From NCBI GenBank assembly GCA_964651415.1, contig CAZYZA010000001.1, positions 40,274-104,273 on the forward strand: 64,000 nucleotides of DNA. Reading direction: 5' to 3'. The translations under genes and the position numbers were made by a program. The notes below the pieces were generated by a model. It was not told the DNA's origin. It ran no database searches and saw only the letters and a list, made by a program, of their open reading frames with translations. Of the stretch, positions 10,122 to 26,386 are shown one piece after another (the stretch's first letter is position 1; every line of letters begins with the position of its first letter). The DNA is from an uncultured Desulfovibrionaceae bacterium. Lineage in GTDB: Bacteria > Desulfobacterota > Desulfovibrionia > Desulfovibrionales > Desulfomicrobiaceae.

Positions 10122-13100
10122 CAGTCTTCTCCGAGCAGACTGTCGATATCCGCCAGCAGGGCGTCCGTGGCCGCGTTGCCGCGGCCTGCGGGTTCCGGCC
10201 CGGCTTGCGCCTGCGGTTGGACGGAGTCCGTGGCACTTGACGAGAGCCACTGCACGATCTTGTCCAGGGTCGGATATTCGAAAATCATGGACACCGGCAC
10301 GGCCCGGCCCAGTTCCCGTCCGATCCGATTGCGGAACTCCACGGCCAGCAGCGAGTCAAAACCCTGTTCCAGGAGCGGGACGTCCGTGGCAATGCGACTG
10401 GGGTCGGCATAACCGAGCAGTCGGCAAGCCAGGGTGCGCAACCCCTGGGCCAATTGGGTGAGATCGGTCCCATCGCCGAGCAGGCCTTCGGTGACGGCGT
10501 TGTCACTTCGGGTTTCGGCTCGCCACTGGGCGGGGATGACCGTGCGGAAATACCCGTCGGGGTGGCGGGCCAGGAAGCCGGAGCGGACAGCGGCAAAACG
10601 TTTCCAGTCCATGGGCATGACGCCGAAGCACGGAGCCAGGGGCTGGGCGTGCTGAAACGCGGTCAGGGCGTCATGGGCATCCAGACTCAAAATGCCCTGG
10701 CGGTCCAGGTGCGAGCTGCGGCGGGCATCAGCCTGAGCCATGCCGCCCCGGGACCACGGCCCCCAGCAGACGCTGGTGGCGGGCAGGCCGAGGGCCTGAC
10801 GCATGTGGGCCAGGGCGTTCAGAAAATGATTGCCGGCATTGTAATTGGCCTGGCCCTGGGTGCCGAGCAGGGTACCGGCCGAGGAATACAGAACGAAATG
10901 GTCCAGTTTGTCGTCCAGGGTGGCGTGGTGCAGATTGAGGGCCGCTGTCTTGGGCGTCATGACCGAGCGGATGCGCTCGGGGGTCAGTTCGGTGATGACG
11001 CCGTCGTCCAGGATGCCGGCCGCGTGGAACACGCCGCATAGCGGAGGCGCCTCTTGGCGCAGACGGGCGACAACGGTCCGGACTTCATCCGGATTGGCCA
11101 CGTCGGCCTCCAGTTCAAGCACCTCCACGCCCTGAAGGCGAAGCCTGTCGACCGCGGCCCGGCCGGATGCGGTCCGGATGCCTGTGCGGGAGATCAGTGC
11201 AACGGTCCGGGCCCCGTTGGCGCCCAGCCAGCCGGCCAGTTCCAGCCCCAGGGCCCCGGAGCCGCCGGTGATCAGGTGCGTGCCCCGGATGGGCAGAGGT
11301 TGGGCGTCGGGAAGTTTCGTGATCCGTTCCAGGGTGCTTTCATGGATTTGTCCGTTGCGCACCGCTCTGGCCTCGAACGGTTCCGGGCAGCGGCACAACC
11401 CGAGCAGGGCGTCCACATCCCGGTCGGTCCAGGCCTGGGCGGGCATGTCCACGCCGCCGCGCCACAGATCGGGATGTTCCAGGGCGAAGCTGCCGCCAAG
11501 CCCCCATAGCCCGGACCCGGACGGTTGCGGCCGATCCTCCGGGGTGGCGGGCATGACGCCGCTGGTCACGGTCACGACCGGCAGGACACGACGCACGCAG
11601 GCCTGCAGAACGCTCAGGGCCGTGCAGCAGTCGTCCATTTCGTCGTGGGCCCGCAGTTCCGGGTCCGGCCCGTGCACGAGAACAAGACGTGCTCCCGGGG
11701 GGACTGCCGGTGGTTGCTCGCCGGTCAGACTGGTGACCGTGACCAGTTCTATGCCCGGCCGCCGGGCCAGAAGTTCCGCCCGGTCTTGCCCGCCGCGTAG
11801 CGGCAGCACCAGGAGGACGGATTCACCGCCGCTGATTCCGGCTGTCGGCCGCCAACGCGGCGCGTAGACGTGAGCCAGCGGATCGGTATGCATCTGGCGG
11901 TACAAGGTGGCGCGATCGGTCATGCGGAAAACAAAGCCATCCAGCTCCAGGACCGGTTGTCCCTGCTCGTCCACGCCCAGGGTCTGACCGCTCAGGGTCG
12001 AGTCGCCCGCGCCGCGCACGGCCGTGGCCCGGCACCAGAGCTGGTCCGGCACGGGTCGCCACAGGCGCAGACTGTCCAGATGCAGCGGAATGAGCAGGGC
12101 TTCCTCGGCCATCATCGTGTCGGCCAGATCGTGGAAAAACGGCGGCAGGATGGTCTGCAGCACGGAGTCCAGAGCGCCGGGATAGATCACGTGCCCCTGT
12201 TCGCCGGGATCGCGTCGTCTGCACCGGACCCGGCACAAGGCCATGTGGCCGCTGATGGAGATGTCCTCGATGCGCTGAAATCCCGGCCCGACCTCGTACC
12301 CCCGGCTGACGAACCGGTTGTAGAACGTTTCCGGCGTTTCACCGTCCGTGAACCGGTCTCCCGGGCGGTGCTCCGGACGGGTTTCCGGACCCGGGTTTCG
12401 GACCAGGGTGCCTGAGCAGTGGGTCTGCCAGTCGGAACCGTTGTGCTCCCGGCTGACCAGGGTGAACGGGCATTCATCTCCGGCCGCGTCGACAATGACC
12501 TGCACGGTGCGCGTTTGTCCCGGCTCCACAACCAGGGGGCTCAGGAAGTCCACCCCGCGCAGTTCGCAGCGCTCCTCGCCCCACAATTCCCGACCGGCAG
12601 CCAGGAGCATGGCCATGTGTCCGGCCGCCGGGCTGATGGGTTTGCCGAAAATGACGTGCTCGTGCACAAAAATCGGTCCGAGGTCGGAAAACACGGATTC
12701 AAAGACAACGCTGCGGCCCAGGGCCGGACTGTCCAAACGGCGGCCAGGCACGGCCAGGGCTGTTTCGCCCTCCTGGACCGGATCAACCTGGACCTCTATC
12801 CAGTGCCGCTTCCGTTCAAAAGGATAGAACGGCAGGGGTTCGTGCCGCTGGGGAAAAAACGAAAAGAGTTCTTCGAAACAAAGCTGCGTTCCGGCTCGGT
12901 ACAACCGGGCCGCGGCCTGGAACAGGCTGGTCAGGGCGGACTGGTTCGGCGCCAGGGACGGTATGGCCTGCAGCCCTCTGTCGCACTGCTCGACCAGTCC
13001 GGACAAGGCGGCCGAAGGTCCGGCTTCAATGGCCAGGGCGTGGGTATTGGCCAGGGTGGTCACGGCGTCGGCAAAGCGCACGGGCGAGGTGATCTGGCCG

Positions 13101-16100
13101 GTCCAGTATGCGTGGTGCGCGATTTCCGGTCCGGCGATCTGTCCGCTGACGGTCGAGACCAGGGTCAAGCCCGACGGTTCACGCAGCCGGACGCGTTCAC
13201 AGTGTGCGCCAAAGCTGCGGGCCGCTTCGGCCATGGCCGGGGAATGAAAGGCGTGCGCCACGCGCAGTTCCTTGCCGTTGATGCCGTGCGCGCCAAGAAC
13301 TTCCATGAACCGCCTCAAGGCGTCACGGGGGCCGGATACGGTCAGGCTGGTCGGGGCGTTGACCGCGGCGATGGTCAGGTCCGGATGTTGGGCGAGCAGA
13401 GGGGAAATGATGTTTTCGGAGGCGAACACGGCCGCCATGCCGCCGTCCGGGGCATGGTCCATGGCCCGTCCCCTGGCCACGGCCAGGCGGAGCATGTCGG
13501 GCAGATCCATGACTCCGGCCGCCACGGCCGCCGGATATTCGCCAATGCTGTGTCCGGCCACGGCGTCAAAATGCAGCCCAAAGGATTCCCACAGCCGCCA
13601 CACGGCGTAGGACACGGCCACGATGGCCGGCTGGGCATTGGCCGTCCGGGCCAGGTCCTGTGCCGGAGTGTCGAACAGGAGCGCGTGCAGATCAATGCCT
13701 TCCGGGCGAAGAATCTCGGCGCACAGGTCAATGGCCCGGCGAAAGGCCGGATAGACCAGAAGTTCCCGGCCCATGCCCGGATGCTGGGAGCCCTGTCCGG
13801 TGAAAAGCAGGGCCGGCCCGGTGGCAGCCGAGCGTGCGTCCGGGTCAAGACGGTCAATCTGTTCGGCTTCCAGGCGCAGATTTTCGGCCAGTTCCTCCGG
13901 CGTGCGGCCAGCAGCGGCCAGACGGCAGGGGAAATGGGCATGGCGGCAGGCCGCGCTGCGGCACAGGGCTGCGGCTCCGGCGGGCGTCATGCCGTGCACT
14001 TTCGCGGCTGTGTCCAGGGCCAGTCGGCGCAGGGCCTGGGGAGTTTTGGCCGAGAGGAAGAGCGGCAGGACCGGAATCTCGGTCTCGTCAGCCGGAATCG
14101 GTCGGTATTCTTCAATGACGGCGTGACCGTTGACTCCGGAAAAGCCGAAGGCGCTCATGCCGGCCCGGCGCGGTCCCGCACTGTCCCAGGCCACAAGGGC
14201 GGTGGGCGCTTCCACGCCCCGTCCGGTCCAGTCAAAGCGGGTGTTGGGCGTTGTGACGTGGATGTTGGCCGGAATGGCCTCGTGCCGCATGCACAGCAGC
14301 ACTTTGGCCAGGGCGGCCAGGGCGGCGGCCGGTTCCAGGTGGCCGATGTTGGCCTTGACCGATCCCAGGCGCAGCAGACTGTCCGGGCGGGATCGGTAGG
14401 CATTGGCCAGGGCTTCCAGCTCAATGGCGTCGCCCAGGGCCGTGCCTGTGCCGTGGGCCTCGACATAGCTGACGTCACCCGCCTGCAGACCGGCGTCGGC
14501 CAGAGCCCGGGCAATGACTTTTTGTTGGGCCAGACCATTGGGCGAGGTCAGACCATTGCTCTTACCGTCCTGGTTGATGGCTGTGCCGCGCACCAGGCCC
14601 AGAATGCGGTCCCCGTCCCGCTCGGCATCGGACAGACGCTTGAGCACCAGGGCCACCGCGCCTTCGCCGCGACCATATCCATCGGCGCTGTCGTCAAAGG
14701 TCTTGCTGCGGCCATCCGGGCTGATGGCCCCGAGCTTGCTGAAGCAGATATGCAGGTCCGGGGTGAGCATGAGGGTCACCCCGGCCACTAGGGCCAGGTC
14801 CGATTCCCCCCGGCGCAGGCTCTGGCAGGCGCAGTGCAGAGCGACAATGCCCGACGAGCAGGCCGTGTCCACGGCAAAACACGGCCCTTCAAAGCCGTAA
14901 AAATAGGAAATCCGTCCGCAGGCCCCGCTCATGGTCGTGCCGGTCAGGGAATAGGCGTCGATGCGGTCGCGCAGGTAGGATTCGCGGTGGGCGTGGCTGT
15001 ATTCGTTGTTGGTCATGGCCACGAACACTCCGGCCTGTTTGCCGCGCCAGGCGAAAGGATCGATGCCGGCATGCTCGAAGGCTTCCCAGCTCAGTTCCAG
15101 GAGCAGACGCTGCTGAGGGTCAAGCTGGGCCGCTTCCCGGGCTGAAATGCCGAAGAAATGGGCATCAAACTCTTCGATGTCGGGAGTCGGATGGCTCAGA
15201 AACGCGGCTTCGCGGGTGTACATCTTGCCCGGAGCCTGACGGTCCGGGTCATAATACCGGTCGCGGTCCCAACGGGACGGGGGGATCAGACCCACTGCGT
15301 CCCGGCCTTCGGCCAGAAATCTCCAGAAATCATCCAGATCGTTGATGCCGCCGGGTAACCGGCAGGCCACGCCGACCACGGCCAGGGGCTCGGTGCCGGA
15401 CGAAGGGCGGCAGGAAAGCTGCGCGCTGGTGGCGGCCGGATCATCGCTGATCACTCCGGCCAGATGTTCGGCCAGGCTGGGGATGTCGGGATGGTTGAAA
15501 ACGGCCGATGCAGGTAGCGGAATGCCCAGGCGCTGGCCAAGGGCCGCGCATAGCCGGGTGGCCAGAAGAGAGGTCACGCCCTGGGCCTGAAACGTCTGGT
15601 CGGCAGACGTCTTCTGCTGGGGCAGCAGTTGGTTCAGCTCCGTTTCGATCCAGGTCCTGAGCGTTTGGACCCGCTCACGGTGGGACCCGGCACGAAGACT
15701 CAGGGCTTCCTGGCTGGCCGGAGGGATGCAGTGGCGCGCTCCCCGGGGGTTCCAGCTGCGGATGACGTCCAGGGCCAGCCCGAAGGACTGCACGCTGTCC
15801 GTGTCGCGGCACATGAGTCCGACGCTTTCAATGCCGTGGCCCATGGCCGTGGCCGTCTCGGCCACATGGCCGAGCAGTACGGCGTGGGGGGAAATTTCCA
15901 CCGCGTGGGTCATCCCCTGTTCCAGGGCCCGGCGCACAGCGGCCTCGAAACGTACCGGTTCGCGGACGTGGCGGCTCCAGTACAGGGCGTCGAAATCACC
16001 CGGCGCGGCCATATTTCCGTGCACGGTGGAGATGATGGGTGTCTTGGGAGCGCCCGGCGCAATGGAGGCCAGGGCCTGGCTGAACAGGGGAAGATGGGTT

Positions 16101-16699
16101 TCAATGGCCGCGCAGTGAAACGGCACGTCCACGGGCAGCAATCGGCAGAATACTTCCGGCTCGCAGGAGGTGATCAGCTCCTGCAGCACGTCCGGGTCGC
16201 CGCTGCACACCGTCCCGGCCGGAGCATTGAGAGCCGCGATCTGAACTTTTCCCCCCCGGGGTTTGAGCAACTTGGTCATGGCCTCCTCGCCCAGGGCGAA
16301 AAAGGCCATGTGCCCCGCACCGCTGGCCTGCTGCAGGAGCAGGCTGTGCCGCCAGGCGACCAGAGCCGCGTCGTGAGCCGAAAGAGCTCCGCACGCCCAG
16401 GCCGCCGCCACTTCGCCGCCGCTGTGGCCCATGATCAGATCCGGCTCGAACCCCTCTGACTGGAGCAGGCGGAACAGGCCGCATTCAACGGCCAGGACGC
16501 AGGGGTGTCCGAGGTGAGCCGGCCGGATGTCCTTGTCCTGCCGGTACAGGAGCTGTTCCACGGACCAGCCGGACAAGTGGGTGAAGGGGTGGTCGAATTC
16601 CCGCAGTCCGGCGGCAAAGGAGGAACTGGCGTCGAGCAGTTCCCGTCCCATGGCCGCCCACTGGGTGCCTATTCCTGAAAAAAGAGCCAAAGCGGTCAT
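10121..16699 (-). CDS. Modular type I PKS: AT(loading)-ACP-KS-AT-DH-KR-ACP
   Basis: 2192 aa. Motifs appear in this order:
- deviant AT: LFSGIGTQWAAMG, GHSGGE, VPFHCAA
- carrier: QGVTSLLATRL
- KS: VDTACSSG, EAHGTGTALGD, NIGHLE
- AT: FTGQGSQHPGMG, GHSIGEYPAA, AHAFHSPAM
- DH: HVIFGKPISP = HxxxGxxxxP
- KR: ITGGSGALG, AAGILDDG (LDD, B-type), YSSAG...NYNAGN
- ACP: QGFDSLLAVEF. Confidence 0.92.
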   Translation of the reverse strand: MTALALFSGIGTQWAAMGRELLDASSSFAAGLREFDHPFTHLSGWSVEQLLYRQDKDIRPAHLGHPCVLAVECGLFRLLQSEGFEPDLIMGHSGGEVAAAWACGALSAHDAALVAWRHSLLLQQASGAGHMAFFALGEEAMTKLLKPRGGKVQIAALNAPAGTVCSGDPDVLQELITSCEPEVFCRLLPVDVPFHCAAIETHLPLFSQALASIAPGAPKTPIISTVHGNMAAPGDFDALYWSRHVREPVRFEAAVRRALEQGMTHAVEISPHAVLLGHVAETATAMGHGIESVGLMCRDTDSVQSFGLALDVIRSWNPRGARHCIPPASQEALSLRAGSHRERVQTLRTWIETELNQLLPQQKTSADQTFQAQGVTSLLATRLCAALGQRLGIPLPASAVFNHPDIPSLAEHLAGVISDDPAATSAQLSCRPSSGTEPLAVVGVACRLPGGINDLDDFWRFLAEGRDAVGLIPPSRWDRDRYYDPDRQAPGKMYTREAAFLSHPTPDIEEFDAHFFGISAREAAQLDPQQRLLLELSWEAFEHAGIDPFAWRGKQAGVFVAMTNNEYSHAHRESYLRDRIDAYSLTGTTMSGACGRISYFYGFEGPCFAVDTACSSGIVALHCACQSLRRGESDLALVAGVTLMLTPDLHICFSKLGAISPDGRSKTFDDSADGYGRGEGAVALVLKRLSDAERDGDRILGLVRGTAINQDGKSNGLTSPNGLAQQKVIARALADAGLQAGDVSYVEAHGTGTALGDAIELEALANAYRSRPDSLLRLGSVKANIGHLEPAAALAALAKVLLCMRHEAIPANIHVTTPNTRFDWTGRGVEAPTALVAWDSAGPRRAGMSAFGFSGVNGHAVIEEYRPIPADETEIPVLPLFLSAKTPQALRRLALDTAAKVHGMTPAGAAALCRSAACRHAHFPCRLAAAGRTPEELAENLRLEAEQIDRLDPDARSAATGPALLFTGQGSQHPGMGRELLVYPAFRRAIDLCAEILRPEGIDLHALLFDTPAQDLARTANAQPAIVAVSYAVWRLWESFGLHFDAVAGHSIGEYPAAVAAGVMDLPDMLRLAVARGRAMDHAPDGGMAAVFASENIISPLLAQHPDLTIAAVNAPTSLTVSGPRDALRRFMEVLGAHGINGKELRVAHAFHSPAMAEAARSFGAHCERVRLREPSGLTLVSTVSGQIAGPEIAHHAYWTGQITSPVRFADAVTTLANTHALAIEAGPSAALSGLVEQCDRGLQAIPSLAPNQSALTSLFQAAARLYRAGTQLCFEELFSFFPQRHEPLPFYPFERKRHWIEVQVDPVQEGETALAVPGRRLDSPALGRSVVFESVFSDLGPIFVHEHVIFGKPISPAAGHMAMLLAAGRELWGEERCELRGVDFLSPLVVEPGQTRTVQVIVDAAGDECPFTLVSREHNGSDWQTHCSGTLVRNPGPETRPEHRPGDRFTDGETPETFYNRFVSRGYEVGPGFQRIEDISISGHMALCRVRCRRRDPGEQGHVIYPGALDSVLQTILPPFFHDLADTMMAEEALLIPLHLDSLRLWRPVPDQLWCRATAVRGAGDSTLSGQTLGVDEQGQPVLELDGFVFRMTDRATLYRQMHTDPLAHVYAPRWRPTAGISGGESVLLVLPLRGGQDRAELLARRPGIELVTVTSLTGEQPPAVPPGARLVLVHGPDPELRAHDEMDDCCTALSVLQACVRRVLPVVTVTSGVMPATPEDRPQPSGSGLWGLGGSFALEHPDLWRGGVDMPAQAWTDRDVDALLGLCRCPEPFEARAVRNGQIHESTLERITKLPDAQPLPIRGTHLITGGSGALGLELAGWLGANGARTVALISRTGIRTASGRAAVDRLRLQGVEVLELEADVANPDEVRTVVARLRQEAPPLCGVFHAAGILDDGVITELTPERIRSVMTPKTAALNLHHATLDDKLDHFVLYSSAGTLLGTQGQANYNAGNHFLNALAHMRQALGLPATSVCWGPWSRGGMAQADARRSSHLDRQGILSLDAHDALTAFQHAQPLAPCFGVMPMDWKRFAAVRSGFLARHPDGYFRTVIPAQWRAETRSDNAVTEGLLGDGTDLTQLAQGLRTLACRLLGYADPSRIATDVPLLEQGFDSLLAVEFRNRIGRELGRAVPVSMIFEYPTLDKIVQWLSSSATDSVQPQAQAGPEPAGRGNAATDALLADIDSLLGED

Positions 16700-16723: not shown

Positions 16724-17752
16724 TCAGGAGAGAATGCGAACATCCAGATAACCGGGGAAACCGGCGTGACCGTCACCCTGGTATTCCAGCAGGGACCAGG
16801 AACCATCCCGGGCCACTTCCTCGAAGCCCGCGAATTTGTAGGTCACGTACATCATCCGGTTGCGGTCCGTTTCCACGAATTCGGCCCGCAGCTTCTTGCC
16901 GGATCGGACCGCCTCGGAGATGACATGGTTGAGCATGACCGAACCGACCCCGCGCGACATGACCCGGCAGGACATGAGCAGCAGTTTCAACGTCCAGCAG
17001 TCCTCGCCTTTTTCCACCAGGCACAGGCCGATTTTGCCGTAGGGGCCGAATTTGTCCTCCAGGGCGCTCATGAGCAGGAGGTGGTCCGGCGAGGAGCGTA
17101 GCCTGTCCAGCTCGTCGTGGCCGAAGGTCAGTCCTGTGGCGTTGAGTTGATGGGTGCGTTCCGTCAGGTCCACGGCCCGTTGCAGATCGCCGTCGGCCAC
17201 GGGGGCGATGGAGAAGCGCATGTCGAGGCTGGCCAGAAAGGCTTCGGCCGGGCCGGAAAAGTTTTCCTCGGCCTTGGCCCGGCTCTGGTCCGTCAGATAG
17301 AGCTGGCGGCGCATGGCCGAATCCTCGGTCACAAAGCGCGGGATGAAGCGCGGCAATTCCGGGATGGTCGGCATGTTGGCCGCGTCCAGGCACAGCACCT
17401 CGGGCAGGGCCAACCCGACCTCTTCCCGCTCAAAGGGCTGATCATCGACAAAGGCAAAGGTGTTCAGGCCGATGTTCAATTTTTGGGCGATAGTCTGCAG
17501 GGACTGGCTTTTGGGACCGAAATGGATCTGCGGATACAGAAAATAGTCGTTCAGGCCCAGGCGGGTCAGGTTAGCCATGGCGTGGTCATGCTCGTTGCGG
17601 CTGGCGATGGATTGCAGGATGCCGCGCCGGTCCAGGCTTTGGATCACTTCCAGCGCTGCGGGTCGCAGATCCCGACCGCCTCCTTCCAGCAGCACGCCGT
17701 CCCAGAGCGTGTCGTCCAGGTCCCAGACCAGGCACTTGACGGTTTTACTCAT
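16724..17752 (-). CDS. FkbH-like HAD-superfamily phosphatase/acyltransferase (glyceryl-ACP forming)
   Basis: MSKTVKCLVWDLDDTLWDG (HAD DxDxT motif) ...ILQSIASRNEHD...FAFVDDQPFEREEV, plus a C-terminal acyltransferase-like half. Size (342 aa) and motif pattern match FkbH/ZmaN-type proteins as I recall them. The ATG overlaps the upstream stop by 8 nt. Confidence 0.75.
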   Translation of the reverse strand: MSKTVKCLVWDLDDTLWDGVLLEGGGRDLRPAALEVIQSLDRRGILQSIASRNEHDHAMANLTRLGLNDYFLYPQIHFGPKSQSLQTIAQKLNIGLNTFAFVDDQPFEREEVGLALPEVLCLDAANMPTIPELPRFIPRFVTEDSAMRRQLYLTDQSRAKAEENFSGPAEAFLASLDMRFSIAPVADGDLQRAVDLTERTHQLNATGLTFGHDELDRLRSSPDHLLLMSALEDKFGPYGKIGLCLVEKGEDCWTLKLLLMSCRVMSRGVGSVMLNHVISEAVRSGKKLRAEFVETDRNRMMYVTYKFAGFEEVARDGSWSLLEYQGDGHAGFPGYLDVRILS

Positions 17753-18887
17753 GGCGTTTTCTCCGGGGAGGGCGGTGGCGCATAAAGGCGTGATTGGAAA
17801 TCATGAGCTGCTGCATCTGGGAGCTGCCTTCGATGATTTCGCAGATCTTGGCGTCGCGGTAATAGCGCATGAGCGGGTAGTCCGGGGAACAACCATTGCC
17901 GCCATGAACCTGCAGGGCGTCGGACGCGGCGCGCAGGGCGGCCCTGGAGCAGAAATACTTGGCCGTGGTGATGAGCATGATCGAGTCCGGGGACATGGCG
18001 TCCCGCTCCCGCCCGGCATGCAGCACCAGGGCCCTGGCCGCTTCCAGGTCCGTGGCCATGTTGGCGATCATTTCCTGGATGAGCTGGTGCTTGCGCAGGG
18101 CCTGGCCGAACTGGGTCCGCTCCTTGGCGTAGATGACGCTCGTTTCCAGGCAGGCTTCCAGAATGCCCACGCAGCCGCAGCCCACGGTGAAGCGCCCATG
18201 ATCCAGGGCATGGGAGGCAACAAAGGTGAAGCCGCCGCCGGTGGGGCCCAGGATGGACTCGGCCGGCAGCGCGCAGTCCGTGAAATCCAGGCGGGCGATG
18301 CCGGCCGCCCGGAATCCGAGCAGATCCTTCATGGGCGTGATGCGCAAACCGGGCGTGCCGGCCGGAACCAGCAGGGCGACCACGCCTTCGTCCTCCAGCC
18401 GGGCCATGATCAGAAAAAGACCGGCATGGACCGAGCCGGAGATCCATTTCTTGGCTCCGTTCAGGATCAGCCTCTCCCCGTCGCGCCGGACCCGGCACTG
18501 GATGCCGGCCGCGTCACTGCCATGGTCGGGTTCGGTCAGACCGAAGGCGGCCCGGACCCGGCCGGCGGCCAAAAGAGGCAGCCATCGGTGCTGTTGCTCG
18601 GGCGTGCCCCAGCGCAGCACGGCCTGGGAAACCATGTTGTGCACGGTCAAAAGACTCAGCAGGGACACGCTGCCCCTGGCCAGTTCGGCGCAGATCCGGC
18701 ACAGACCGGAACTGTCCAGGCCCTGGCCGCCCCAGGTCCGGGGCAGACCCGCTCCAAACCACTTCTCGGCGCATTCTTCGATGATGTCGTCCGGCAGGGA
18801 CTGCGCTTCCTCCCAGGCGTTGGAATAGGGGTAGACCCGGTCGTTAATCCACGCGCGCATGGCGCGGCCTGCGACTTCAGCGTCCAT
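17745..18887 (-). CDS. Acyl-CoA/acyl-ACP dehydrogenase (FkbI/ZmaE/ClbF-like)
   Basis: ACAD-family sequence (...GLTEPDHGSDAAGIQC..., ...YFCSRAALRAASDALQVHGGNGCSPDYPLMRYYRDAKICEIIEGSSQMQ). The probable start is the ATG at 18887, preceded by GAAGGAGAAGGG. The ORF-track start is at 18914. Confidence 0.85.
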   Translation of the reverse strand: MDAEVAGRAMRAWINDRVYPYSNAWEEAQSLPDDIIEECAEKWFGAGLPRTWGGQGLDSSGLCRICAELARGSVSLLSLLTVHNMVSQAVLRWGTPEQQHRWLPLLAAGRVRAAFGLTEPDHGSDAAGIQCRVRRDGERLILNGAKKWISGSVHAGLFLIMARLEDEGVVALLVPAGTPGLRITPMKDLLGFRAAGIARLDFTDCALPAESILGPTGGGFTFVASHALDHGRFTVGCGCVGILEACLETSVIYAKERTQFGQALRKHQLIQEMIANMATDLEAARALVLHAGRERDAMSPDSIMLITTAKYFCSRAALRAASDALQVHGGNGCSPDYPLMRYYRDAKICEIIEGSSQMQQLMISNHAFMRHRPPRRKRHE

Positions 18888-19122
18888 GCCCTTCTCCTTC
18901 GACCAGGGAGACAATGGCGTCGATGGATTGAAAATTGCTCAGTTTCAGATTTTCACGGCTGATGGTCAGTTGAAACTGTTTTTCCACGAACATCACCAGT
19001 TGCATGGCAAAAAGCGAATTGACGTATCCCAGTTCGAACATGTTTTCATCATCGGCCAGTTCGTCGTCCTTGACGTATTTCAGCACAAAATCCCGGATAG
19101 TCCCCCGCACGTCGTTGGTCAT
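18877..19122 (-). CDS. Stand-alone acyl carrier protein (FkbJ/ZmaD/ClbE-like)
   Basis: 81 aa, acidic, with the carrier-type helix II motif ELGYVNSLFAMQLVMFVE. It lies between the two dehydrogenases, as in known extender-unit cassettes. Confidence 0.75.
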   Translation of the reverse strand: MTNDVRGTIRDFVLKYVKDDELADDENMFELGYVNSLFAMQLVMFVEKQFQLTISRENLKLSNFQSIDAIVSLVEGEGHGR

Positions 19123-19161
19123 GTATTCGTCCTTAGGTCTTTGGTGGATAAAAGTACGTTG

Positions 19162-20010
19162 TCAGGCGTATTCGTAAAAACCCTTGCCACTCTTGCGGCC
19201 CAGCAAACCTGCGTCCACCATCTTGCGCAGCAGGGGACACGGTCTGAATTTCGGATCGTTGTAGCTTGCGTACAGCCCTTCGAGGGACAGCAGGATCGTG
19301 TCCAGGCCGATCAGGTCGCCGGTTTCCAGCGGTCCCATGGGATGGCCGAAACAGGATTTGAAAATCCGGTCCACGTCTTCGGGGCGGGCCACATTGTCCT
19401 GGACGGTCCAGATGGCCTCGTTGACCGTGAGCATGAGCACGCGGTTGGACACGAATCCCGGCAGGTCGTTGACCACCACGGCCCGTTTTTTCATCTGTTT
19501 CAGAAAAGTCTTGGCCCGTGCGATGGTTTCGTCGCTGGTGTGATGCCCCCGAATGACCTCGACCACGGGTTTGAGCGGGACCGGGTTCATGAAATGCATG
19601 CCCACGATTTTGTCCGCGCGCTGTGTCCAGGACCCGATGCGGGTGATGGAAATGACCGAGGTGTTGGCCGCGATGCATGTCTCCGGCCGACAGATGCGGT
19701 CCAGGTCGCGGTACAGGGGTTCTTTCAGGTCAACCAGCTCCGTGATGTTTTCGACGACAAAATCCGCTTCGGCCAGTACTTCGGGTCGGGTGGCGAATCG
19801 GATGCGCGGCAGACAGGCGTCCACGTCCACGGCGTCCCGACCGAACAGACCGTGCATGCGCATGGCCTGGACGATGTCGTGTCGGGCCTGGTCCAGAATG
19901 TCCGTGTTCACGTCCACGAGCAGGACGTCCATGCCGTGCATGGCCAGGGTCTGGCTCACGCCGCGTCCCATGACTCCGGCGCCCACGACGCCTATGCATT
20001 GAAAATCCAT
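19162..20010 (-). CDS. 3-hydroxyacyl-CoA dehydrogenase family protein (FkbK/ZmaG/ClbD-like)
   Basis: MDFQCIGVVGAGVMGRGVSQTL (Rossmann GxGxxG) and the HBD-family core ...MHFMNPVPLKPVVEVI...GFVSNRVL.... ATG at 20010 is preceded by GGAGGA. The ORF-track start is at 20076. Confidence 0.85.
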   Translation of the reverse strand: MDFQCIGVVGAGVMGRGVSQTLAMHGMDVLLVDVNTDILDQARHDIVQAMRMHGLFGRDAVDVDACLPRIRFATRPEVLAEADFVVENITELVDLKEPLYRDLDRICRPETCIAANTSVISITRIGSWTQRADKIVGMHFMNPVPLKPVVEVIRGHHTSDETIARAKTFLKQMKKRAVVVNDLPGFVSNRVLMLTVNEAIWTVQDNVARPEDVDRIFKSCFGHPMGPLETGDLIGLDTILLSLEGLYASYNDPKFRPCPLLRKMVDAGLLGRKSGKGFYEYA

Positions 20011-20080: not shown

Positions 20081-23000
20081 TTATGCGCCAGGTTGTCCCG
20101 TGGCCGGTCGAATCCGGCGCAGGCTCATGACCACCTTGAAAAACCAGGGGACAAAAACCGGTGAGATCACGGTGGCCGCGACCATACCGCCGATGATGCT
20201 GCTGCCGAGCACATGACGGCAGCCTGAACCGGCCCCGGAGGAGATCACCAGGGGCACGCAGCCCAGGATAAAGGCCAGGGACGTCATGATGATGGGACGA
20301 AATCGCAATCTGGCCGCCTCCAGTGCCGCCTCGGCCGGAGTGCGGCCGGCGGCCAGCTCCACGGCCGCGAACTCAACGATGAGAATGGCGTTCTTGGCCG
20401 CCAGGCCGATCAGAGTGACCATAGCCACCTGGACGTAAATATCGTTGGCAAAGCCAAGCACGAAGATTGTCGCCAGCGCGCCGAACAGGGCAAACGGAAC
20501 CGCCAGAACAACGGCCGTGGGTAGGGTCCAGCTATCATACTGGGCGGCCAGGATCAGGAACATCAGTCCCAGCCCCAGCAGCAGGGCCATGTAGTTGGTG
20601 CCGCCTTCAGCCTTTTCCTGAAAGGACGATCCGCTCCAGGCCAGGGAGTATCCGGCGGGCAACTCCGTGCGGACCAGGTCCTCCAGGGCGGCCATGGCCT
20701 GCAGGTTGCTGTATCCGGGGGCGGCCTGGCCGGACATCCGGGCCGCGGGCACTCCGTTGAACCGGGTCAGGGCGAAAGCGCCGCTGGTGGTCGTGGTCGA
20801 GATCAGGTTGGCCAGGGGAATCATTTCTCCGGCCTGGCTGCGCACGAAAATCGAAGACAGATCTTCCGGTCCGGCCCGGAACACGGAATCCGCCTGCAGA
20901 TAGACCCGAAAGGCCCGGCCGTGCAGGGTGAAATCATTCAGATAGCTGCCGGCCAGGGCGGAACTCAGAGCCTGGTACACGTCACCCACCGCGACGCCCA
21001 TGAGCTTGGCCTTTTCCACGTCAAGCTGCACGTAAACCTTGGGCGTGCCCAGACTCAGGGAACTGCCCACGCCGTCCAGTTCCGGCCGTCCGGCAGCGGC
21101 TTGGGACAGCTTGGCCGCCTGTGCGGCCATGTCTTCGACGGACGCCCCGGCATTGTTTTGCAGAAAACCTTCCAGCCCGCCCACGGTGCTCAGTCCGACG
21201 ATGGGTGGAGGATTGAAGGCCGCGAGCATTCCGTCCGTGACGTCGACACCGAAGACCCGTCCGGCCACCGCCTGGGAGGACTGGGCCGGGTCCGGACGCT
21301 GGTCCCAGGGCTTGAGCATGATGAAGGCGGCTCCGGCGCTGCCGACAGTGCCGGTGCCGCCGAGCAGGTCGGTGCCGGCGATGGTCAGCACGGAATCCAC
21401 GGCCGGGTCCCGGAGCATTGTCGCGGACAGGGTGTCGAGCACCTTGTCCGTGCGCGGCATGGCCGCTCCCTCGGGCAGCATGGCCACGGCGATGACGTAG
21501 CCCTGATCCTCGTCGGGAGCCAGTCCTTCGGGCACGCGATGCAGAAGGTCCCAGACGGCCCAGCCAAGCAGGCACATGCCCACGATGGCCAGGATGTCGA
21601 ACCGCAGCAGCAGGCGCACTCCGGCCAGATAGATGTTTGTCACCCAGGCGAAGCAGCGGTCGAAAAGACGCGAGAACCACGTGCCGCCGCCATGAGGGCG
21701 CAGCAGGCGGGCGCACATGACCGGCGAGAGAGTCAGAGCCACGATGCCGGACAGAGTCACGGACAGGGCGATGGTGATGCCGAACTGCCGGAACATTTCG
21801 CCGGTCATGCCGCCCATGAACGAGACCGGCACGAACACGGCGCACATCACCAGGACGGTGGCGATGACCGGTCCCGTGACCTCGCGCATGGCCAGACTGG
21901 TGGCCTGACGGGCCGATAGTCCCTTTTCGTGCATGATGCGCTCCACGTTTTCCAGGACCACGATGGCGTCGTCGACCACGATGCCGATGGCCAGGACCAT
22001 GCCGAAGAGGGTCAGGGTATTGATGGAGAATCCGAGCAGATACATGCCGATCATGGTGCCGATGATGGACACCGGCACGGCGATGCAAGGAATGAGTGTG
22101 GCCCGGACGTTCTGGAGGAAAAGAAAAATGACCAGGGCCACCAGGACCATGGCTTCAAACAGGGTATGCACGACCTCTTCGATGGAGATGCGGACAAAGG
22201 TGGTCACGTTGTAGGGTATGGCATGCTCCATGCCCGGCGGAAAATCCCGGCTCAGTTCGATCATTCTGGCCGCGATGAGATCGGCGGTCTGCAGGGCGTT
22301 GGCGCCGGGGGCAAGGGAAATGCTGACGCCGGCCACGGGCTGACCGTTGAGCTTGCTGCGCACCCCGTAGTCGGCGGCGCCCAGTTCGATGCGGGCCACG
22401 TCGCGCAAACGCATGATGCCCTTGTTCTGGTCCACCCGGACGATGATGTCGCCGAACTCCTCCACCGTGGCCATGCGGCCCTGGGTGCTGACCAGCCAGG
22501 TCATTTTCAGGTCGTCGGGTGCGGGCTGCAGGCCGACGGTTCCGGCCGCGTACTGGGCGTTTTGTTCCTGCACGGCCCGGGCGATATCCTGGGGCGTGAG
22601 GGCGAAGGCGGCCAGCTTGGCCGGATCGAACCAGATACGCATGGCGTATTCTTCGGAGATGAGCGACGCGGCCGAGGCCACTCCGGGAATGCGCTTCAAA
22701 TGGTCGATGATGTTCAGGGCCGCGTAATTGTTCAGGTAGAGGCTGTCGTAGCGGCCGTCCGGGCTGGACAGGGTGATGATCATGAGGAACGCGCCCGAGC
22801 CGGCGGTCACGCTGACGCCCAGTCGGCGCACCTCGTCCGGCAGGGAGGCCAGTGTCCCCTGGACAAGGTTGCTGACCCGGCTGCTGGCGGCTTCCGGATC
22901 GGTGCCCTGGGCAAAGGTCGCGGTCATGGACATGACCCCGTTGGCAGAGCAGGTCGATTGGAGATAGAGCAGGTCCTGAGCCCCGTTCACGGCCTGCTCC

Positions 23001-23203
23001 AGGGGGGCGGCCACGACCTGGGAAATGACCTCGGGGCTGGCGCCGGGATAGATCGCGGTGACCGAGACGGCCGGCGGAAGCAGATCCGGATATTGGGCCA
23101 CCGGCAGGCGTGTCAGCGCCAGGGTGCCCAAGATGACGATGACCAGGGAGATGACGATGGCCAGGACCGGTCGACGCAGAAAGAAAATGTCCTGCATGAT
23201 CAA
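20081..23203 (-). CDS. RND (HAE1/AcrB-type) efflux permease
   Basis: 1040 aa with 12-TM RND architecture. The N-terminus FFLRRPVLAIVISLVIVILG and multiple conserved AcrB-like blocks are present. The start overlaps the MFP stop (ATGA). Confidence 0.93.
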   Translation of the reverse strand: MIMQDIFFLRRPVLAIVISLVIVILGTLALTRLPVAQYPDLLPPAVSVTAIYPGASPEVISQVVAAPLEQAVNGAQDLLYLQSTCSANGVMSMTATFAQGTDPEAASSRVSNLVQGTLASLPDEVRRLGVSVTAGSGAFLMIITLSSPDGRYDSLYLNNYAALNIIDHLKRIPGVASAASLISEEYAMRIWFDPAKLAAFALTPQDIARAVQEQNAQYAAGTVGLQPAPDDLKMTWLVSTQGRMATVEEFGDIIVRVDQNKGIMRLRDVARIELGAADYGVRSKLNGQPVAGVSISLAPGANALQTADLIAARMIELSRDFPPGMEHAIPYNVTTFVRISIEEVVHTLFEAMVLVALVIFLFLQNVRATLIPCIAVPVSIIGTMIGMYLLGFSINTLTLFGMVLAIGIVVDDAIVVLENVERIMHEKGLSARQATSLAMREVTGPVIATVLVMCAVFVPVSFMGGMTGEMFRQFGITIALSVTLSGIVALTLSPVMCARLLRPHGGGTWFSRLFDRCFAWVTNIYLAGVRLLLRFDILAIVGMCLLGWAVWDLLHRVPEGLAPDEDQGYVIAVAMLPEGAAMPRTDKVLDTLSATMLRDPAVDSVLTIAGTDLLGGTGTVGSAGAAFIMLKPWDQRPDPAQSSQAVAGRVFGVDVTDGMLAAFNPPPIVGLSTVGGLEGFLQNNAGASVEDMAAQAAKLSQAAAGRPELDGVGSSLSLGTPKVYVQLDVEKAKLMGVAVGDVYQALSSALAGSYLNDFTLHGRAFRVYLQADSVFRAGPEDLSSIFVRSQAGEMIPLANLISTTTTSGAFALTRFNGVPAARMSGQAAPGYSNLQAMAALEDLVRTELPAGYSLAWSGSSFQEKAEGGTNYMALLLGLGLMFLILAAQYDSWTLPTAVVLAVPFALFGALATIFVLGFANDIYVQVAMVTLIGLAAKNAILIVEFAAVELAAGRTPAEAALEAARLRFRPIIMTSLAFILGCVPLVISSGAGSGCRHVLGSSIIGGMVAATVISPVFVPWFFKVVMSLRRIRPATGQPGA

Positions 23204-24363
23204 CCCTGGGTCCGGGAGTCGGGCTCCGGATTTTCGCGGACATTGACCGGCATGCCCGGACCGACCTTGCCCGTGCCTTCGACAATGATCCGTTCCGTGC
23301 CGTCCAGCCCGGAGGAGACCACGAGCTGTCTGCCGACACGGGTCAGGATTTCGATGGGACGGAAGGACGCGGTCTGGGCGTCATCGACCACGACGACCAT
23401 GGCCCCGGTCTGCCCCTGCAGAACCGCCTGTTCGGGAATGGCGATGGCGGCGGGGAAGGTCAGAAGGCTCAGATGGATGCGGACAACCTGGCCCGGCAGC
23501 AGGGTTCTGTCCGGGTTGGGAAAAACTGCCTTGGCCAGCATGCAGCCTGTTTCCCGGCTGATCACGGGATTGCCGAAGGTCATGGTGCCGTTGTGCGGGT
23601 AGGCGTGATTCTGGTCGATGGACAGCCGGGCCGGAACCGTTTTGTCCATGACGGCCCGTTCGCTGGCCAGAAAGCCCTGGATGCGCCGGACCTGGGTGTC
23701 GGGCACGGAAAAGACGATTTGCACCTTGTGCACGTTGTGAATGGTGGTCAGCAGGCTGTCCGGCGAACCGGCGGCAATAAGGCTGCCTTCGTTATGTTCG
23801 GCCATGCTGGCGAACCCGCCGATGGGTGCCTTGATCCGGGTCTGATCCAGTTCGATCCGCGCCGCGCGAAGGGTAGCCTCGGCTTCGGCCAGGCCCGCCT
23901 TGGCCGATTCGTACTCGGTCTGCACCAGGTCGCGGTCCCGCTGGCTGATGGAATTGCGTTCGGCCAGGGGTACAGCCCGGTCCAGATCCCGCCGGGCGTT
24001 GTCCAGCCGTGCCTTGAGGCTGGTGACGCGGCTTGCGGCCTGATCGACCTGGGCCTGGAACGGTCCGGGCTCAATCTCGAACAAGACCTGTCCGGCCTGG
24101 ACCGCTTCGCCGTCCCGGAAAAAACGCTTTCTGAGAATTCCGCTGACCTGGGCCCGCACTTCAACGGATTCGATTCCTTCCACATGACCGACAAAGGTCT
24201 GCTCGAAAGAGATGTCCGCCGGCGAAAGCTGCTGCACCAGGACCGTGGGCCGGGGCCGCGTCGGGGCCGGTTCGGAGGAGCCGCCATCCTGGTTGGAACA
24301 GCCTGCCGCAAGTCCGCAGCAGAGCAGAATCATCAGCCACAAAATGCCGGCTCCACGAATCAT
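23200..24363 (-). CDS. RND periplasmic adaptor (membrane fusion protein), lipoprotein
   Basis: Lipobox LAAGC at the N-terminus. HlyD/AcrA-like coiled-coil and beta-barrel segments are present (...RAARIELDQTRIKAPIGG...). ATGA overlaps on both sides. Confidence 0.9.
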   Translation of the reverse strand: MIRGAGILWLMILLCCGLAAGCSNQDGGSSEPAPTRPRPTVLVQQLSPADISFEQTFVGHVEGIESVEVRAQVSGILRKRFFRDGEAVQAGQVLFEIEPGPFQAQVDQAASRVTSLKARLDNARRDLDRAVPLAERNSISQRDRDLVQTEYESAKAGLAEAEATLRAARIELDQTRIKAPIGGFASMAEHNEGSLIAAGSPDSLLTTIHNVHKVQIVFSVPDTQVRRIQGFLASERAVMDKTVPARLSIDQNHAYPHNGTMTFGNPVISRETGCMLAKAVFPNPDRTLLPGQVVRIHLSLLTFPAAIAIPEQAVLQGQTGAMVVVVDDAQTASFRPIEILTRVGRQLVVSSGLDGTERIIVEGTGKVGPGMPVNVRENPEPDSRTQG

Positions 24364-25796
24364 GGGTGTACCTTTTGGCTAGAAGTGTCGGGCGTTTGGA
24401 TCCGGCCGGTTGTTTCTTCCCATCCGCCGCCCAGGGCCATGCACATGTCCACGGCGGCCTGCAGTTGGCCCGTTCTGGTCTGGGCCCAGCTCAGTTGGGC
24501 GTCAAAGAGCGCGCGACCTGCGTCCAGTACGTCAAGATAATTGGAATATCCGTGCCGATGCCGGTCTTCGGCCTTGATGGCGGCCTCCTGCAGGCCGGCA
24601 ATGTTGCGGCTCAGGGCGATTTCGGCCTGCGCCAACAAAGACTGACGAGCCAGGATGCTTCGGATGTCGCTGAACGCCGACAGCACGGCCTGTTCATAGC
24701 CTGCGGCCGCTTCCTGGCACGCGGCCCGGGCCATGAGTTCACGGAAGCGGGTGTTCCAGAAGTCCAGCGGCAGATTCAGACTCAGCCCATAGCCCCAGGT
24801 CAGCGCCCCGGACATGGTCATGTCAGTGGGCTGTGCCCCAGCCAGGCCGGCTTTTCCGGTCAGGGAGATGGAAGGAAAATAGTCGGCGCGGACCACGCCC
24901 ACATCGAAATGGGCCGCGCGCAGACGCTGTTCGGCCGCATGCAGGTCCGGACGTCGCAGCAGCAGGCTGGACGGCAGATCATCCGGCAGGACGGGTGCTG
25001 CGGGAAACGTTTCAAGGCTTGCGCCGGGCCGGATTGATGCGTTCAGGATTTTTTCCGGCGAACGTCCGAGCAGCACAAGCAGGGCGCTCTGGGTTTCCTC
25101 CAGACCCAGCCGGGCCATGGCCAGGGAATAGCGGGCGACCTCGACTTCGCTTTCGGCCCGCAGGAGATCGGCCCGGCTGAAGAATCCCACGGCTTCGTTG
25201 ATCTGGTAAAACTCAAGGGCCTCGATGCGCTGGGTCAGGGTCTGTTCGGCGATGCGAACCTGAAAGCCGTAGCCGATCAGGGAAAAATAGGCTTTTGCGG
25301 TGGAGGCGGCCACCAGGAGGCGGGCGGCGGCGAGGTCGGATTCGGTGGCCAGCAGGAGGGCATCGGCAGAGTCGGCGGAGTTGCGAAATTTCCCCCAGAA
25401 GTCGAGCTCCCAGGCTGTGTTGAACATGATGTTGTGGAGGCTGGACGATTCGTGTCCTTTGGGTGGTCCGCCAGCTATGCGCCGGGATGTCCAGGATTCT
25501 TCCGCGTTACCGGCCAGGGCGGGCGAGGGGGCCAGGTCGCCCCGGGCTCTTCCGGCCCGGGCCCGGGCCTGGAGCACGCGGGCCGTGGCTGCGGCCAGAT
25601 CCCGGTTATGCTCAAGGGCCTCGCCTACCAGTTGATCGAGCACGGGATCGTCAAAGCGTTGCCACCAGTCGGAAGCCAGGCTTTCTCCGGCCGTTTGCGG
25701 CCAGGAAGGAGGCAATTCCTGCACCGGACGCACGTATGATGGGGCCAGGGAGCAACCTGTCAGCAGCAGAACGAGCAGGAAAAGAGTATGCTTCAC
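24360..25796 (-). CDS. Outer-membrane factor lipoprotein (NodT/OprM family)
   Basis: GTG start, signal plus lipobox LLLTGCSLAPSY, and two OEP repeats (478 aa). It is the first gene of the minus-strand unit. Confidence 0.9.
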   Translation of the reverse strand: MKHTLFLLVLLLTGCSLAPSYVRPVQELPPSWPQTAGESLASDWWQRFDDPVLDQLVGEALEHNRDLAAATARVLQARARAGRARGDLAPSPALAGNAEESWTSRRIAGGPPKGHESSSLHNIMFNTAWELDFWGKFRNSADSADALLLATESDLAAARLLVAASTAKAYFSLIGYGFQVRIAEQTLTQRIEALEFYQINEAVGFFSRADLLRAESEVEVARYSLAMARLGLEETQSALLVLLGRSPEKILNASIRPGASLETFPAAPVLPDDLPSSLLLRRPDLHAAEQRLRAAHFDVGVVRADYFPSISLTGKAGLAGAQPTDMTMSGALTWGYGLSLNLPLDFWNTRFRELMARAACQEAAAGYEQAVLSAFSDIRSILARQSLLAQAEIALSRNIAGLQEAAIKAEDRHRHGYSNYLDVLDAGRALFDAQLSWAQTRTGQLQAAVDMCMALGGGWEETTGRIQTPDTSSQKVHP

Positions 25797-26386
25797 AAGG
25801 GTTCCGGTCGCCGTACCCCACGCGGCAGTGGCCTGGCCGTGGTGTTATGATGTTTGTTCGGGAGTTGACGCCTTCCGGTCGGCGCAGCTTGTTACATGCT
25901 TGTGCCGAATTTCTCACAAGAGAAACTATGCCTTTGTTGCAAAGAAAACAACAGGCTTTCGGCTTTATCGAGATGAAAAAAAATAATTGAACATAGAATC
26001 AAATAGTTGTCCGTGATGAGTGTTTGTGATTGGCGTTTCTGAGCCAGTATCCCCCCCCGGATGGGAGAGCCTTTTCCCGGTGCAAATCGTGCCGGCTCAG
26101 GTGCACGATGCCGCGAGTAATCTAAACCAATGCGTTAAGAATCCGGGATGTGTGACCCTTGCGGTCTTCCCGTTTCGAGCGGTTATTTCAGCCAGTTGTT
26201 TCACCCTGATCCTCGGCCAAAAACTGCCTGCGGTCGGACGTGGAAGACAAGACTCGACCAGCCGCCCATTGCTGTTTCGTATCAAGGCCGGTATCAGAAA
26301 GCGGTCTTGGCTCTTGAAGTCTTTTTTTGCCTTCGCCTCCATGTCATCAAGAAACTGAACCGCTTAATTCCGGAAGTTGGTGCCCG

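Follow-up and report, generated by a model that had tools for sequence, protein, structure and literature searches.

The 64,000-nucleotide stretch of DNA considered here (the window) comes from an uncultured Desulfovibrionaceae bacterium (GenBank assembly GCA_964651415.1; genome of 3.6 Mb in 213 contigs, 99% complete) and covers positions 40274-104273 of the 109.7-kb contig CAZYZA010000001.1, designated C1. Four genes at 16724-20010 of the window, next to a polyketide synthase (PKS) gene, raise the question of which building block they make and where that block enters the assembly line. All four lie on the minus strand and were found by Pfam and TIGR01686 searches to encode a 3-hydroxyacyl-CoA dehydrogenase homologue (HADH), a free-standing acyl carrier protein (ACP), an acyl-CoA dehydrogenase homologue (ACAD) and an FkbH protein; the coordinates and gene types given in an earlier reading, made from the letters alone (the sequence-only reading), are exact. 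The genes stand together in a single operon and form a complete cassette of the FkbK-FkbJ-FkbI-FkbH type. Its product is probably unmethylated hydroxymalonyl-ACP, and the earlier proposal to this effect, of a cassette without an O-methyltransferase, is supported by family matches, conserved motifs and the lack of a linked methyltransferase gene.

The FkbH protein covers profile positions 2-320 of 323 in TIGR01686 and scored 275.4 bits in a genome-wide search, which disclosed no second FkbH in this genome; among 61 related genomes, three carry one. Alignment of 14 homologues, which span Desulfovibrionales to Streptomyces, Polyangium and Chloroflexi, showed that D11, D13 and T15 of HAD motif I (W10-D11-L12-D13-D14-T15) are invariant. 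The sequence-only reading had taken absence of the C-terminal acyltransferase Cys as a sign that the assignment was wrong. A candidate counterpart of this residue, which has been mapped by experiment in OzmB, is Cys262 in LLLMSCRVMSRGVG, invariant in the 14 homologues drawn from at least five phyla.

Among named organisms, Streptomyces sp. NBC_01304 (locus L179) and Polyangium aurulentum (L180) carry the nearest relatives of each of the four genes, with identities of 60-64% for FkbH, 59-63% for HADH, 45-47% for ACAD and 46-47% for the ACP. The catalytic residues of the last three proteins, judged by alignment to L179, L180 and L011, are conserved, namely the Ser in ELGYVNSLFAMQLV (VNSL) of the ACP, GxGxxG and the His of HFMNPVP in HADH, and the catalytic-base Glu in IIEGSSQMQ of ACAD. 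The gene order HADH-ACP-ACAD-FkbH is the same at L007, L008, L010, L011, L015, L096, L099, L179 and L180, and L183 has ACP-ACAD-FkbH at the edge of the locus.

The two dehydrogenases might instead serve the primary metabolism of fatty acids or butyrate, in which case FkbH and the ACP alone would give glyceryl-ACP in the style of tetronate or glycerate-starter pathways. The best PDB and NCBIfam matches of ACAD are generic acyl-CoA dehydrogenases and those of HADH are 3-hydroxybutyryl-CoA dehydrogenases. FkbI (1r2j), tried as the nearest solved relative of ACAD, ranks about 29th; with 174 bits it scores below generic short-chain acyl-CoA dehydrogenases, which reach 242 bits against ACAD, and this speaks against the assignment of ACAD to the cassette. 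Since raw similarity fails to separate cassette ACADs from primary ones, genomic context and the absence of paralogues were used. Searches of the whole genome with HADH and ACAD (tblastn) returned only the two proteins themselves, so there is no beta-oxidation set for them to belong to, and neither forms part of a larger beta-oxidation or butyrate set, of the kind that includes thiolase, crotonase, ETF and paralogous ACADs, outside secondary-metabolite clusters. Both are the sole members of their families in the genome and are translationally coupled inside the cassette, which is kept as a fixed four-gene unit as far away as Streptomyces and Polyangium, and no solved ACAD matches the window protein as well as do the cassette ACADs of L179 and L180 (294-318 bits). 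Tetronate-type FkbH/ACP pairs, moreover, occur without both dehydrogenases (PMC7489565), and no FabH-like tetronate gene is present. A primary-metabolic origin, which the sequence-only reading had named as a way in which its proposal could fail, is hardly credible.

Methoxymalonyl cassettes (FkbG-H-I-J-K of FK520, Mad11-15 of tetromadurin, and those of bafilomycin, geldanamycin and oxazolomycin) likewise have FkbH, an ACP and two dehydrogenases, which are proposed to act in the same way as far as hydroxymalonyl-ACP (PMC7489565, PMC3679948), but they have a fifth gene, for an O-methyltransferase, and none is linked to the window cassette. The absence of a methyltransferase from the 64 kb, noted earlier, holds and extends to the whole of contig C1, on which Methyltransf_25 has no match. 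Between the pump and the nonribosomal peptide synthetase (NRPS), every stretch of the map is assigned and there is no room for such a gene. An O-methyltransferase just outside the window would also have altered the expected product; the flanks there carry, on the left, the NRPS, a phosphopantetheinyl transferase, a binding protein, an ABC ATPase and a Band_7 protein, and, on the right, a binding protein, an MFS fusion and a formyltransferase-fold protein, each side followed by housekeeping genes. At L007, L008, L010, L011 and L183, too, the annotated surroundings contain no methyltransferase. Because no O-methyltransferase is encoded with the cluster or in the relatives examined, the unit is expected to remain unmethylated, as in zwittermicin.

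The true extender would be methoxymalonyl-ACP if an O-methyltransferase encoded elsewhere in the genome acted in trans, and a generic class I methyltransferase model does give 22 matches, all on contigs other than C1. There is also a sole, weak match to the FkbG family (Methyltransf_3) on contig C49, of 42.9 bits and, when the open reading frame (ORF) itself is scored, 42.5 bits, and the cassettes of L179 and L180 are linked to a gene for an acyltransferase (AT), an ACP and a Methyltransf_21 domain. This gene, which we take to be SorC-like (soraphen SorC), precedes the cassette at both loci, unlike in the window, and FkbM-type methyltransferases (Methyltransf_21) have no match anywhere in the genome. 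The ORF on C49 is unlinked, bears no NCBIfam name and lies between genes for a cyclophilin and a hydrolase, and annotated relatives of the cluster (Desulfovibrionales, the Betaproteobacteria bacterium metagenome-assembled genome (MAG) and metagenomes) have no cluster methyltransferase. A possible trans-acting enzyme on another contig of the 213-contig assembly counts against an unmethylated product, and methoxymalonyl-ACP is very improbable.

The chemistry of the preferred pathway to hydroxymalonyl-ACP is taken from the FK520, zwittermicin and tetromadurin pathways (PMC7489565, PMC3679948, PMC4207774). FkbH would dephosphorylate 1,3-bisphosphoglycerate, take up the glyceryl group as a thioester on a Cys and pass it on to the 81-aa ACP. 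The NAD-dependent HADH would then oxidise C3 of glyceryl-ACP to the aldehyde, 2-hydroxy-3-oxopropionyl-ACP, which the flavin-dependent ACAD would in turn oxidise to the acid, hydroxymalonyl-ACP. Enzymes of these four types (ZmaN, ZmaD, ZmaG, ZmaE), with no O-methyltransferase and a hybrid PKS-NRPS as recipient, serve zwittermicin A in Bacillus cereus, from which the window differs in its Gram-negative anaerobic host and in the beta-aminotransferase of its assembly line. Aminomalonyl-ACP cassettes (colibactin ClbD-E-F; ZmaG/H/I/J) also use a HADH homologue, a free ACP and an ACAD homologue on an ACP-bound three-carbon unit; there an adenylation domain primes the carrier with serine, and a trans-AT is needed (ClbG, ZmaF). 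In the window FkbH is the priming enzyme, so the alpha substituent would be OH and not NH2.

The genome encodes four ATs: the loading AT (AT_L) and AT1 of PKS1, AT2 of PKS2, and a FabD-like one on contig C12. AT1 shows GHSIG, NGK and HAFH, and AT2 GHSIG and HAFH in a stretch that reads ESR-PLPVS-HAFH-C. Both also carry A/TQP and, alone of the three cluster ATs, keep the carboxylate-binding Arg equivalent to FabD-Arg117; the best solved relative of both is the malonyl-specific CurL AT (220 bits for AT2). The earlier description of both canonical cis-ATs as malonyl-type is thus borne out. It was equally apt to call the loading AT deviant, as AT_L has GHSGG, FCR and VPFH, His118 at the FabD-Arg117 position, and GHP for TQP. 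The loading carrier that follows it, ACP_L, carries GVTSL.

ACP-dependent ATs of the ZmaA/ZmaF kind are marked by GYSxG, by GAAH/GPFH instead of HAFH/YASH and by hydrophobic residues at RXR (PMC4207774), criteria that rest on few characterised ATs. The comparison of specificity residues for which the sequence-only reading had called was run, and this signature is present in none of the three cluster ATs; nor does any AT in the genome belong to the GYSxGE type. ZmaA-AT, which is the only solved AT for hydroxymalonyl-ACP, ranks 33rd for AT2 (128 bits) and is absent for AT1 at E<=1e-30. The cassettes of L179 and L180, unlike that of the window, adjoin a ZmaA-like AT: its active site reads GYSLGE, and ZmaA (4qbu) is fourth among its best solved matches, with 207 bits. 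Active sites with GYS may mark ATs for ACP-linked three-carbon units in general. The absence of the ZmaA/ZmaF features from the cluster, together with the different setting of the closest named cassettes, weighs against delivery of hydroxymalonyl-ACP to this synthase. In bafilomycin, the presumed methoxymalonyl ATs show no significant sequence difference from methylmalonyl ATs (PMC3679948). We infer that the free ACP hands the unit to one of the cis-ATs of the cluster, although none of them bears the Zma-type signature.

The sequence-only reading had left open entry at the loading AT, at a module beyond the window, or as a starter. The NRPS, which runs off the window, was followed over its full length and showed no PKS or methyltransferase domain in Pfam. 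Since the off-window gene is a pure NRPS, the cluster has only the three ATs, and entry at an off-window PKS module is excluded. The question is thereby narrowed, and the loading AT is less likely than had been implied. The evidence comes from related clusters with and without the cassette.

The cluster belongs to a family found in metagenomes and MAGs of Desulfovibrionaceae, a Betaproteobacteria bacterium, Rhodospirillaceae, Accumulibacter, Latescibacterota and Desulfuromonadaceae, with the architecture AT_L-ACP-KS-AT-DH-KR-ACP (KS, ketosynthase; DH, dehydratase; KR, ketoreductase), then KS-AT, then ACP-aminotransferase-NRPS. Within this family the cassette is an optional add-on. The Desulfuromonadaceae MAG has the PKS1/PKS2 architecture of the window and no FkbH in its whole genome, and L013 and several single-module variants have no cassette within their flanks. 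Two loci were left out as cassette-less contrasts: L098, with a 10-kb upstream flank devoid of cluster genes, and L184, the contig of which begins inside PKS1. The FkbH tree mirrors the AT_L/PKS1 tree, a congruence that indicates a single gain of the cassette, followed by inheritance together with the cluster. The whole cluster has been transferred to the Betaproteobacteria bacterium, Rhodospirillaceae and Latescibacterota MAGs. The literature was searched for a product of the cluster in Desulfovibrio or Desulfoplanes, and none that had been characterised was found.

The closest named relative of the cluster is that of the cultured Desulfoplanes formicivorans (BDFE01000015.1, L181), with PKS1 60% and PKS2 65% identical and the same flanks. 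Here the RND gene is followed by a 197-bp spacer and then by PKS1, and the spacer contains a 150-bp remnant of fkbH, equivalent to residues 288-338 of the protein (47% identity, E = 2e-9); no FkbH occurs elsewhere in the genome. The remnant is the scar of a deletion, and the species must formerly have had the cassette. All synthase ORFs remain intact. Desulfoplanes was compared with six cassette-bearing clusters, and only positions invariant in those six were counted. The changes amounted to 3 of 80 in AT_L (all conservative), 4 of 242 in KS1, 6 of 105 in AT1, 12 of 210 in KS2 (several of them non-conservative) and 10 of 137 in AT2.

Entry as a starter through AT_L and ACP_L, as a glycolyl group after decarboxylation or possibly as intact hydroxymalonyl, is suggested by position: fkbH ends 24 nt before the start of PKS1, and this adjacency is kept in most cassette-bearing relatives. 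AT_L is also the only non-canonical AT, its xPFH resembles the GPFH of ZmaF (PMC4207774), and the two extender ATs resemble ordinary malonyl-CoA ATs. However, AT_L has His in place of the carboxylate-binding Arg and GHP in place of TQP, and there is no decarboxylating ketosynthase (KSQ) to decarboxylate the unit. GHSGG, the His, GHP and xPFH are kept in all family members, including cassette-less clusters and the FkbH-less Desulfuromonadaceae MAG; the family AT_Ls form a distinct loading-AT clade. Since these features do not vary in clusters without the cassette, the AT_L starter is independent of it, and Desulfoplanes, having lost the cassette, retains VPFH in an intact cluster. The starter route is thus unlikely on four counts: AT_L has no carboxylate-binding Arg, a KSQ is missing, AT_L stays the same where the cassette is absent, and the cluster of Desulfoplanes is intact. 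GHSGG was also considered as a cassette-linked AT marker and was rejected after a scan of 185,579 species genomes, where the motif occurs mainly in this cluster family and none of the 70+ actinomycete AT loci listed has FkbH nearby.

Use by AT1 in module 1 would lead, through the KR and DH, to a 2-hydroxy-enoyl, i.e. 2-oxoacyl, intermediate. AT1 keeps the Arg. Its YASH equivalent begins, depending on the family member, with H, R, K, N or G, an unusual variability that would be unexpected for a strict malonyl AT. Similar variability is nevertheless seen in cassette-less clusters (GAFH, HPFH, NAFH), no invariant motif position of AT1 changed in Desulfoplanes, and the CurL AT is its best solved relative. 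The module-1 DH also looks active by inspection (HxxxGxxxxP, DxxxQ), and its action on an alpha-hydroxy intermediate would be chemically awkward. This route is distinctly unlikely. As for AT motifs in general, the YASH and RXR specificity motifs were compared across clusters with and without the cassette, and those of none of the three ATs track it cleanly.

Extension at module 2, which is formed by KS2-AT2 and the ACP-aminotransferase of the NRPS, is ranked first and weakly favoured; the NRPS part is predicted to supply both the carrier and the beta-amination step. The specificity motifs of AT2 changed in Desulfoplanes at 4 of 13 invariant columns, against 6 of 124 elsewhere in the domain (Fisher p = 0.008), whereas invariant motif columns of AT1 and AT_L show no change. 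The four changes are T662I and T665V in DTRCTQ (the RVDVVQ equivalent) and H793L and C797S in HAFH and the residue after it. KS2 changed more than KS1 in the same lineage (p = 0.02). Taken together, these changes suggest that, within the assembly line, it was probably PKS2 that was affected by the loss of the cassette. The other entry routes, beyond module 2, AT_L and module 1, take what probability remains.

At module 2 the unit would yield a 2-hydroxy-3-oxoacyl thioester on the N-terminal ACP of the NRPS, which the aminotransferase would convert into a 2-hydroxy-3-amino acid. Cassette-less clusters would make a plain 3-amino acid from malonyl-CoA, in keeping with a cassette that is an optional add-on. 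The junction recalls those of the mycosubtilin/iturin MycA type and the microcystin McyE type (KS-AT-ACP-aminotransferase), where a carrier-bound beta-keto thioester is transaminated and passed to the condensation (C) domain of an NRPS; in the window the module is split over two proteins and, in one sub-family, has a hydroxymalonyl cassette alongside. A cassette beside such a split aminotransferase module could make the beta-amino acid alpha-hydroxylated. The fuller proposal, tentative and open to doubt, is that a malonyl-looking cis-AT (GHSIG, Arg117, HAFH) in a carrier-less KS-AT protein takes hydroxymalonyl from the free ACP, and that the aminotransferase then forms a 2-hydroxy-3-amino acid, a warhead of the bestatin/microginin type.

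The case for module 2 has its own weaknesses. It was drawn post hoc from a single lineage that lost the cassette, and one of the four altered AT2 positions is not constant elsewhere, as His793 is Gln in P0250 and P0260 (QAFH-C). In addition, the FkbH-positive locus L183 has a canonical KS2 (DAACSS) and HSFH-S in AT2. A combination of E[ST]AC[AS]T in KS2 with HAFH-C in AT2, tried as a signature of the cassette, was broken by L183, P0250 and P0260 and was rejected. The KS2 motif of the window itself reads VESACATG and not DTACSS; this KS retains the Cys and the two His residues. The form E[STAG]AC[AS]T is found in the sub-family of the window and in Desulfoplanes, and not in L013, L098, L183 or the Desulfuromonadaceae clusters.

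To our knowledge, unmethylated hydroxymalonyl-ACP is among the rarest PKS building blocks, characterised in a handful of pathways only. The type of hydroxymalonyl pathway is known; this example is unusual in its host lineage, in the aminotransferase that accompanies it, in a cassette that is optional and has left a datable scar in a cultured species, and in the lack of a recognisable acceptor AT. The cassette is added to a beta-amino lipopeptide-like assembly line that has no recognisable ACP-dependent AT, and the matched natural variants with and without it make the choice of acceptor AT, and its determinants, testable. If module 2 is the site of entry, the alpha-hydroxy-beta-amino acid would owe its hydroxyl to glycolysis and would need no oxygenase, which suits a strict anaerobe. 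If a malonyl-looking AT takes the unit, it would represent a second, unrecognised class of ACP-dependent ATs, and motif-based predictors would miss glycolate units.

The coordinates are collected in Table 1; start codons were set from Shine-Dalgarno sequences and the lengths of relatives. HADH starts at the ATG at 20010, preceded by GGAGGA, and PKS2 at 10121. The cassette genes had been described as four overlapping genes, which is right for ACP/ACAD (11 nt) and ACAD/FkbH (8 nt) but not for HADH and ACP, which are 39 nt apart. PKS1 and PKS2 share TGATG at their junction, and the stop of PKS2 overlaps the type II thioesterase gene by ATGA. Because of the overlaps ACP/ACAD, ACAD/FkbH, PKS1/PKS2 and PKS2/thioesterase, the cassette and synthase genes are considered translationally coupled. 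Immediately upstream, and on the strand of the cassette, lie the OEP-MFP-RND efflux genes, which probably serve export and whose order is common to L007, L008, L010 and L181.

Table 1 Features of the window, of contig C1 and of compared loci. Positions without a prefix are those of the window; domain positions marked "about" are approximate.
Feature	Position	Strand	Assignment
HADH, FkbK/ZmaG-type NAD-dependent dehydrogenase, 282 aa	19162-20010	-	Pfam 3HCDH_N 178 bits, 3HCDH 119 bits
ACP, free-standing, FkbJ/ZmaD-type carrier, 81 aa	18877-19122	-	Pfam PP-binding
ACAD, FkbI/ZmaE-type FAD-dependent acyl-ACP dehydrogenase homologue, 380 aa	17745-18887	-	all three Acyl-CoA_dh domains (Pfam)
FkbH, HAD phosphatase/acyltransferase, 342 aa	16724-17752	-	TIGR01686 275.6 bits, cut-off 146.65
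PKS1, AT_L-ACP_L-KS1-AT1-DH-KR-ACP1, 2192 aa	10121-16699	-	Pfam
AT_L of PKS1	about 15740-16699	-	
AT1 of PKS1	about 12830-13837	-	
PKS2, KS2-AT2 without carrier, 965 aa	7224-10121	-	Pfam
KS2 motif of PKS2	about 9480-9500	-	
AT2 of PKS2	about 7446-8453	-	
Type II thioesterase	6535-7227	-	Pfam Thioesterase
DUF697 protein, then beta-lactamase-fold autotransporter	between type II thioesterase and NRPS	-	
NRPS N-terminus, ACP-aminotransferase, running off the window	2-2035	-	Pfam PP-binding, Aminotran_3
Full NRPS, ACP-aminotransferase-(condensation-adenylation-thiolation)x4-thioesterase-epimerase-like, 5400 aa	C1:26106-42308	-	
Condensation-superfamily domain after the NRPS thioesterase	C1:26106-27430 (L005:110-1432)		TIGR01720 58 bits
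OEP-MFP-RND efflux genes	20081-25796	-	Pfam, NCBIfam
ABC_sub_bind-type binding protein	26327-27463	+	
ABC_sub_bind-type binding protein	C1:24243-25340	-	
Methyltransf_3-like ORF, 278 aa, between cyclophilin and alpha/beta-hydrolase genes	C49:14381-14755 (L002:1381-2214)		no NCBIfam name
AT(GYSLGE)-ACP-Methyltransf_21 gene, directly upstream of cassette	L179:1186-3654 and L180:1053-3623		
Spacer between RND gene and PKS1, Desulfoplanes formicivorans	L181:9804-10000		
Asparagine-synthase-family gene between NRPS genes	L182:10847-12703 and L183:19323-21119		

In the NRPS, the first C domain, which follows the aminotransferase, reads LHIAADG and not HHxxxDG at residues about 780-800, with the first His lost. 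Behind the thioesterase (TE) stands a further domain of the Condensation superfamily. It occurs together with the cassette in four of four cases and was therefore considered as the user of hydroxymalonyl-ACP, which would make an AT unnecessary, a role rejected on the grounds that HHLVVDGVSWRIL and the TIGR01720 match mark it as epimerase-like. An epimerase-like domain behind the TE is an unusual order; it is kept in G011, G062 and G063, and the NRPS of the cassette-less L013 ends at the TE.

Binding proteins of the ABC_sub_bind type stand at both ends of the cluster, and the ABC ATPase and Band_7 genes at its far end recur in the cassette-less L012, L104 and L107. Cluster variants of the Latescibacterota type have a gene of the asparagine-synthase family between their NRPS genes.

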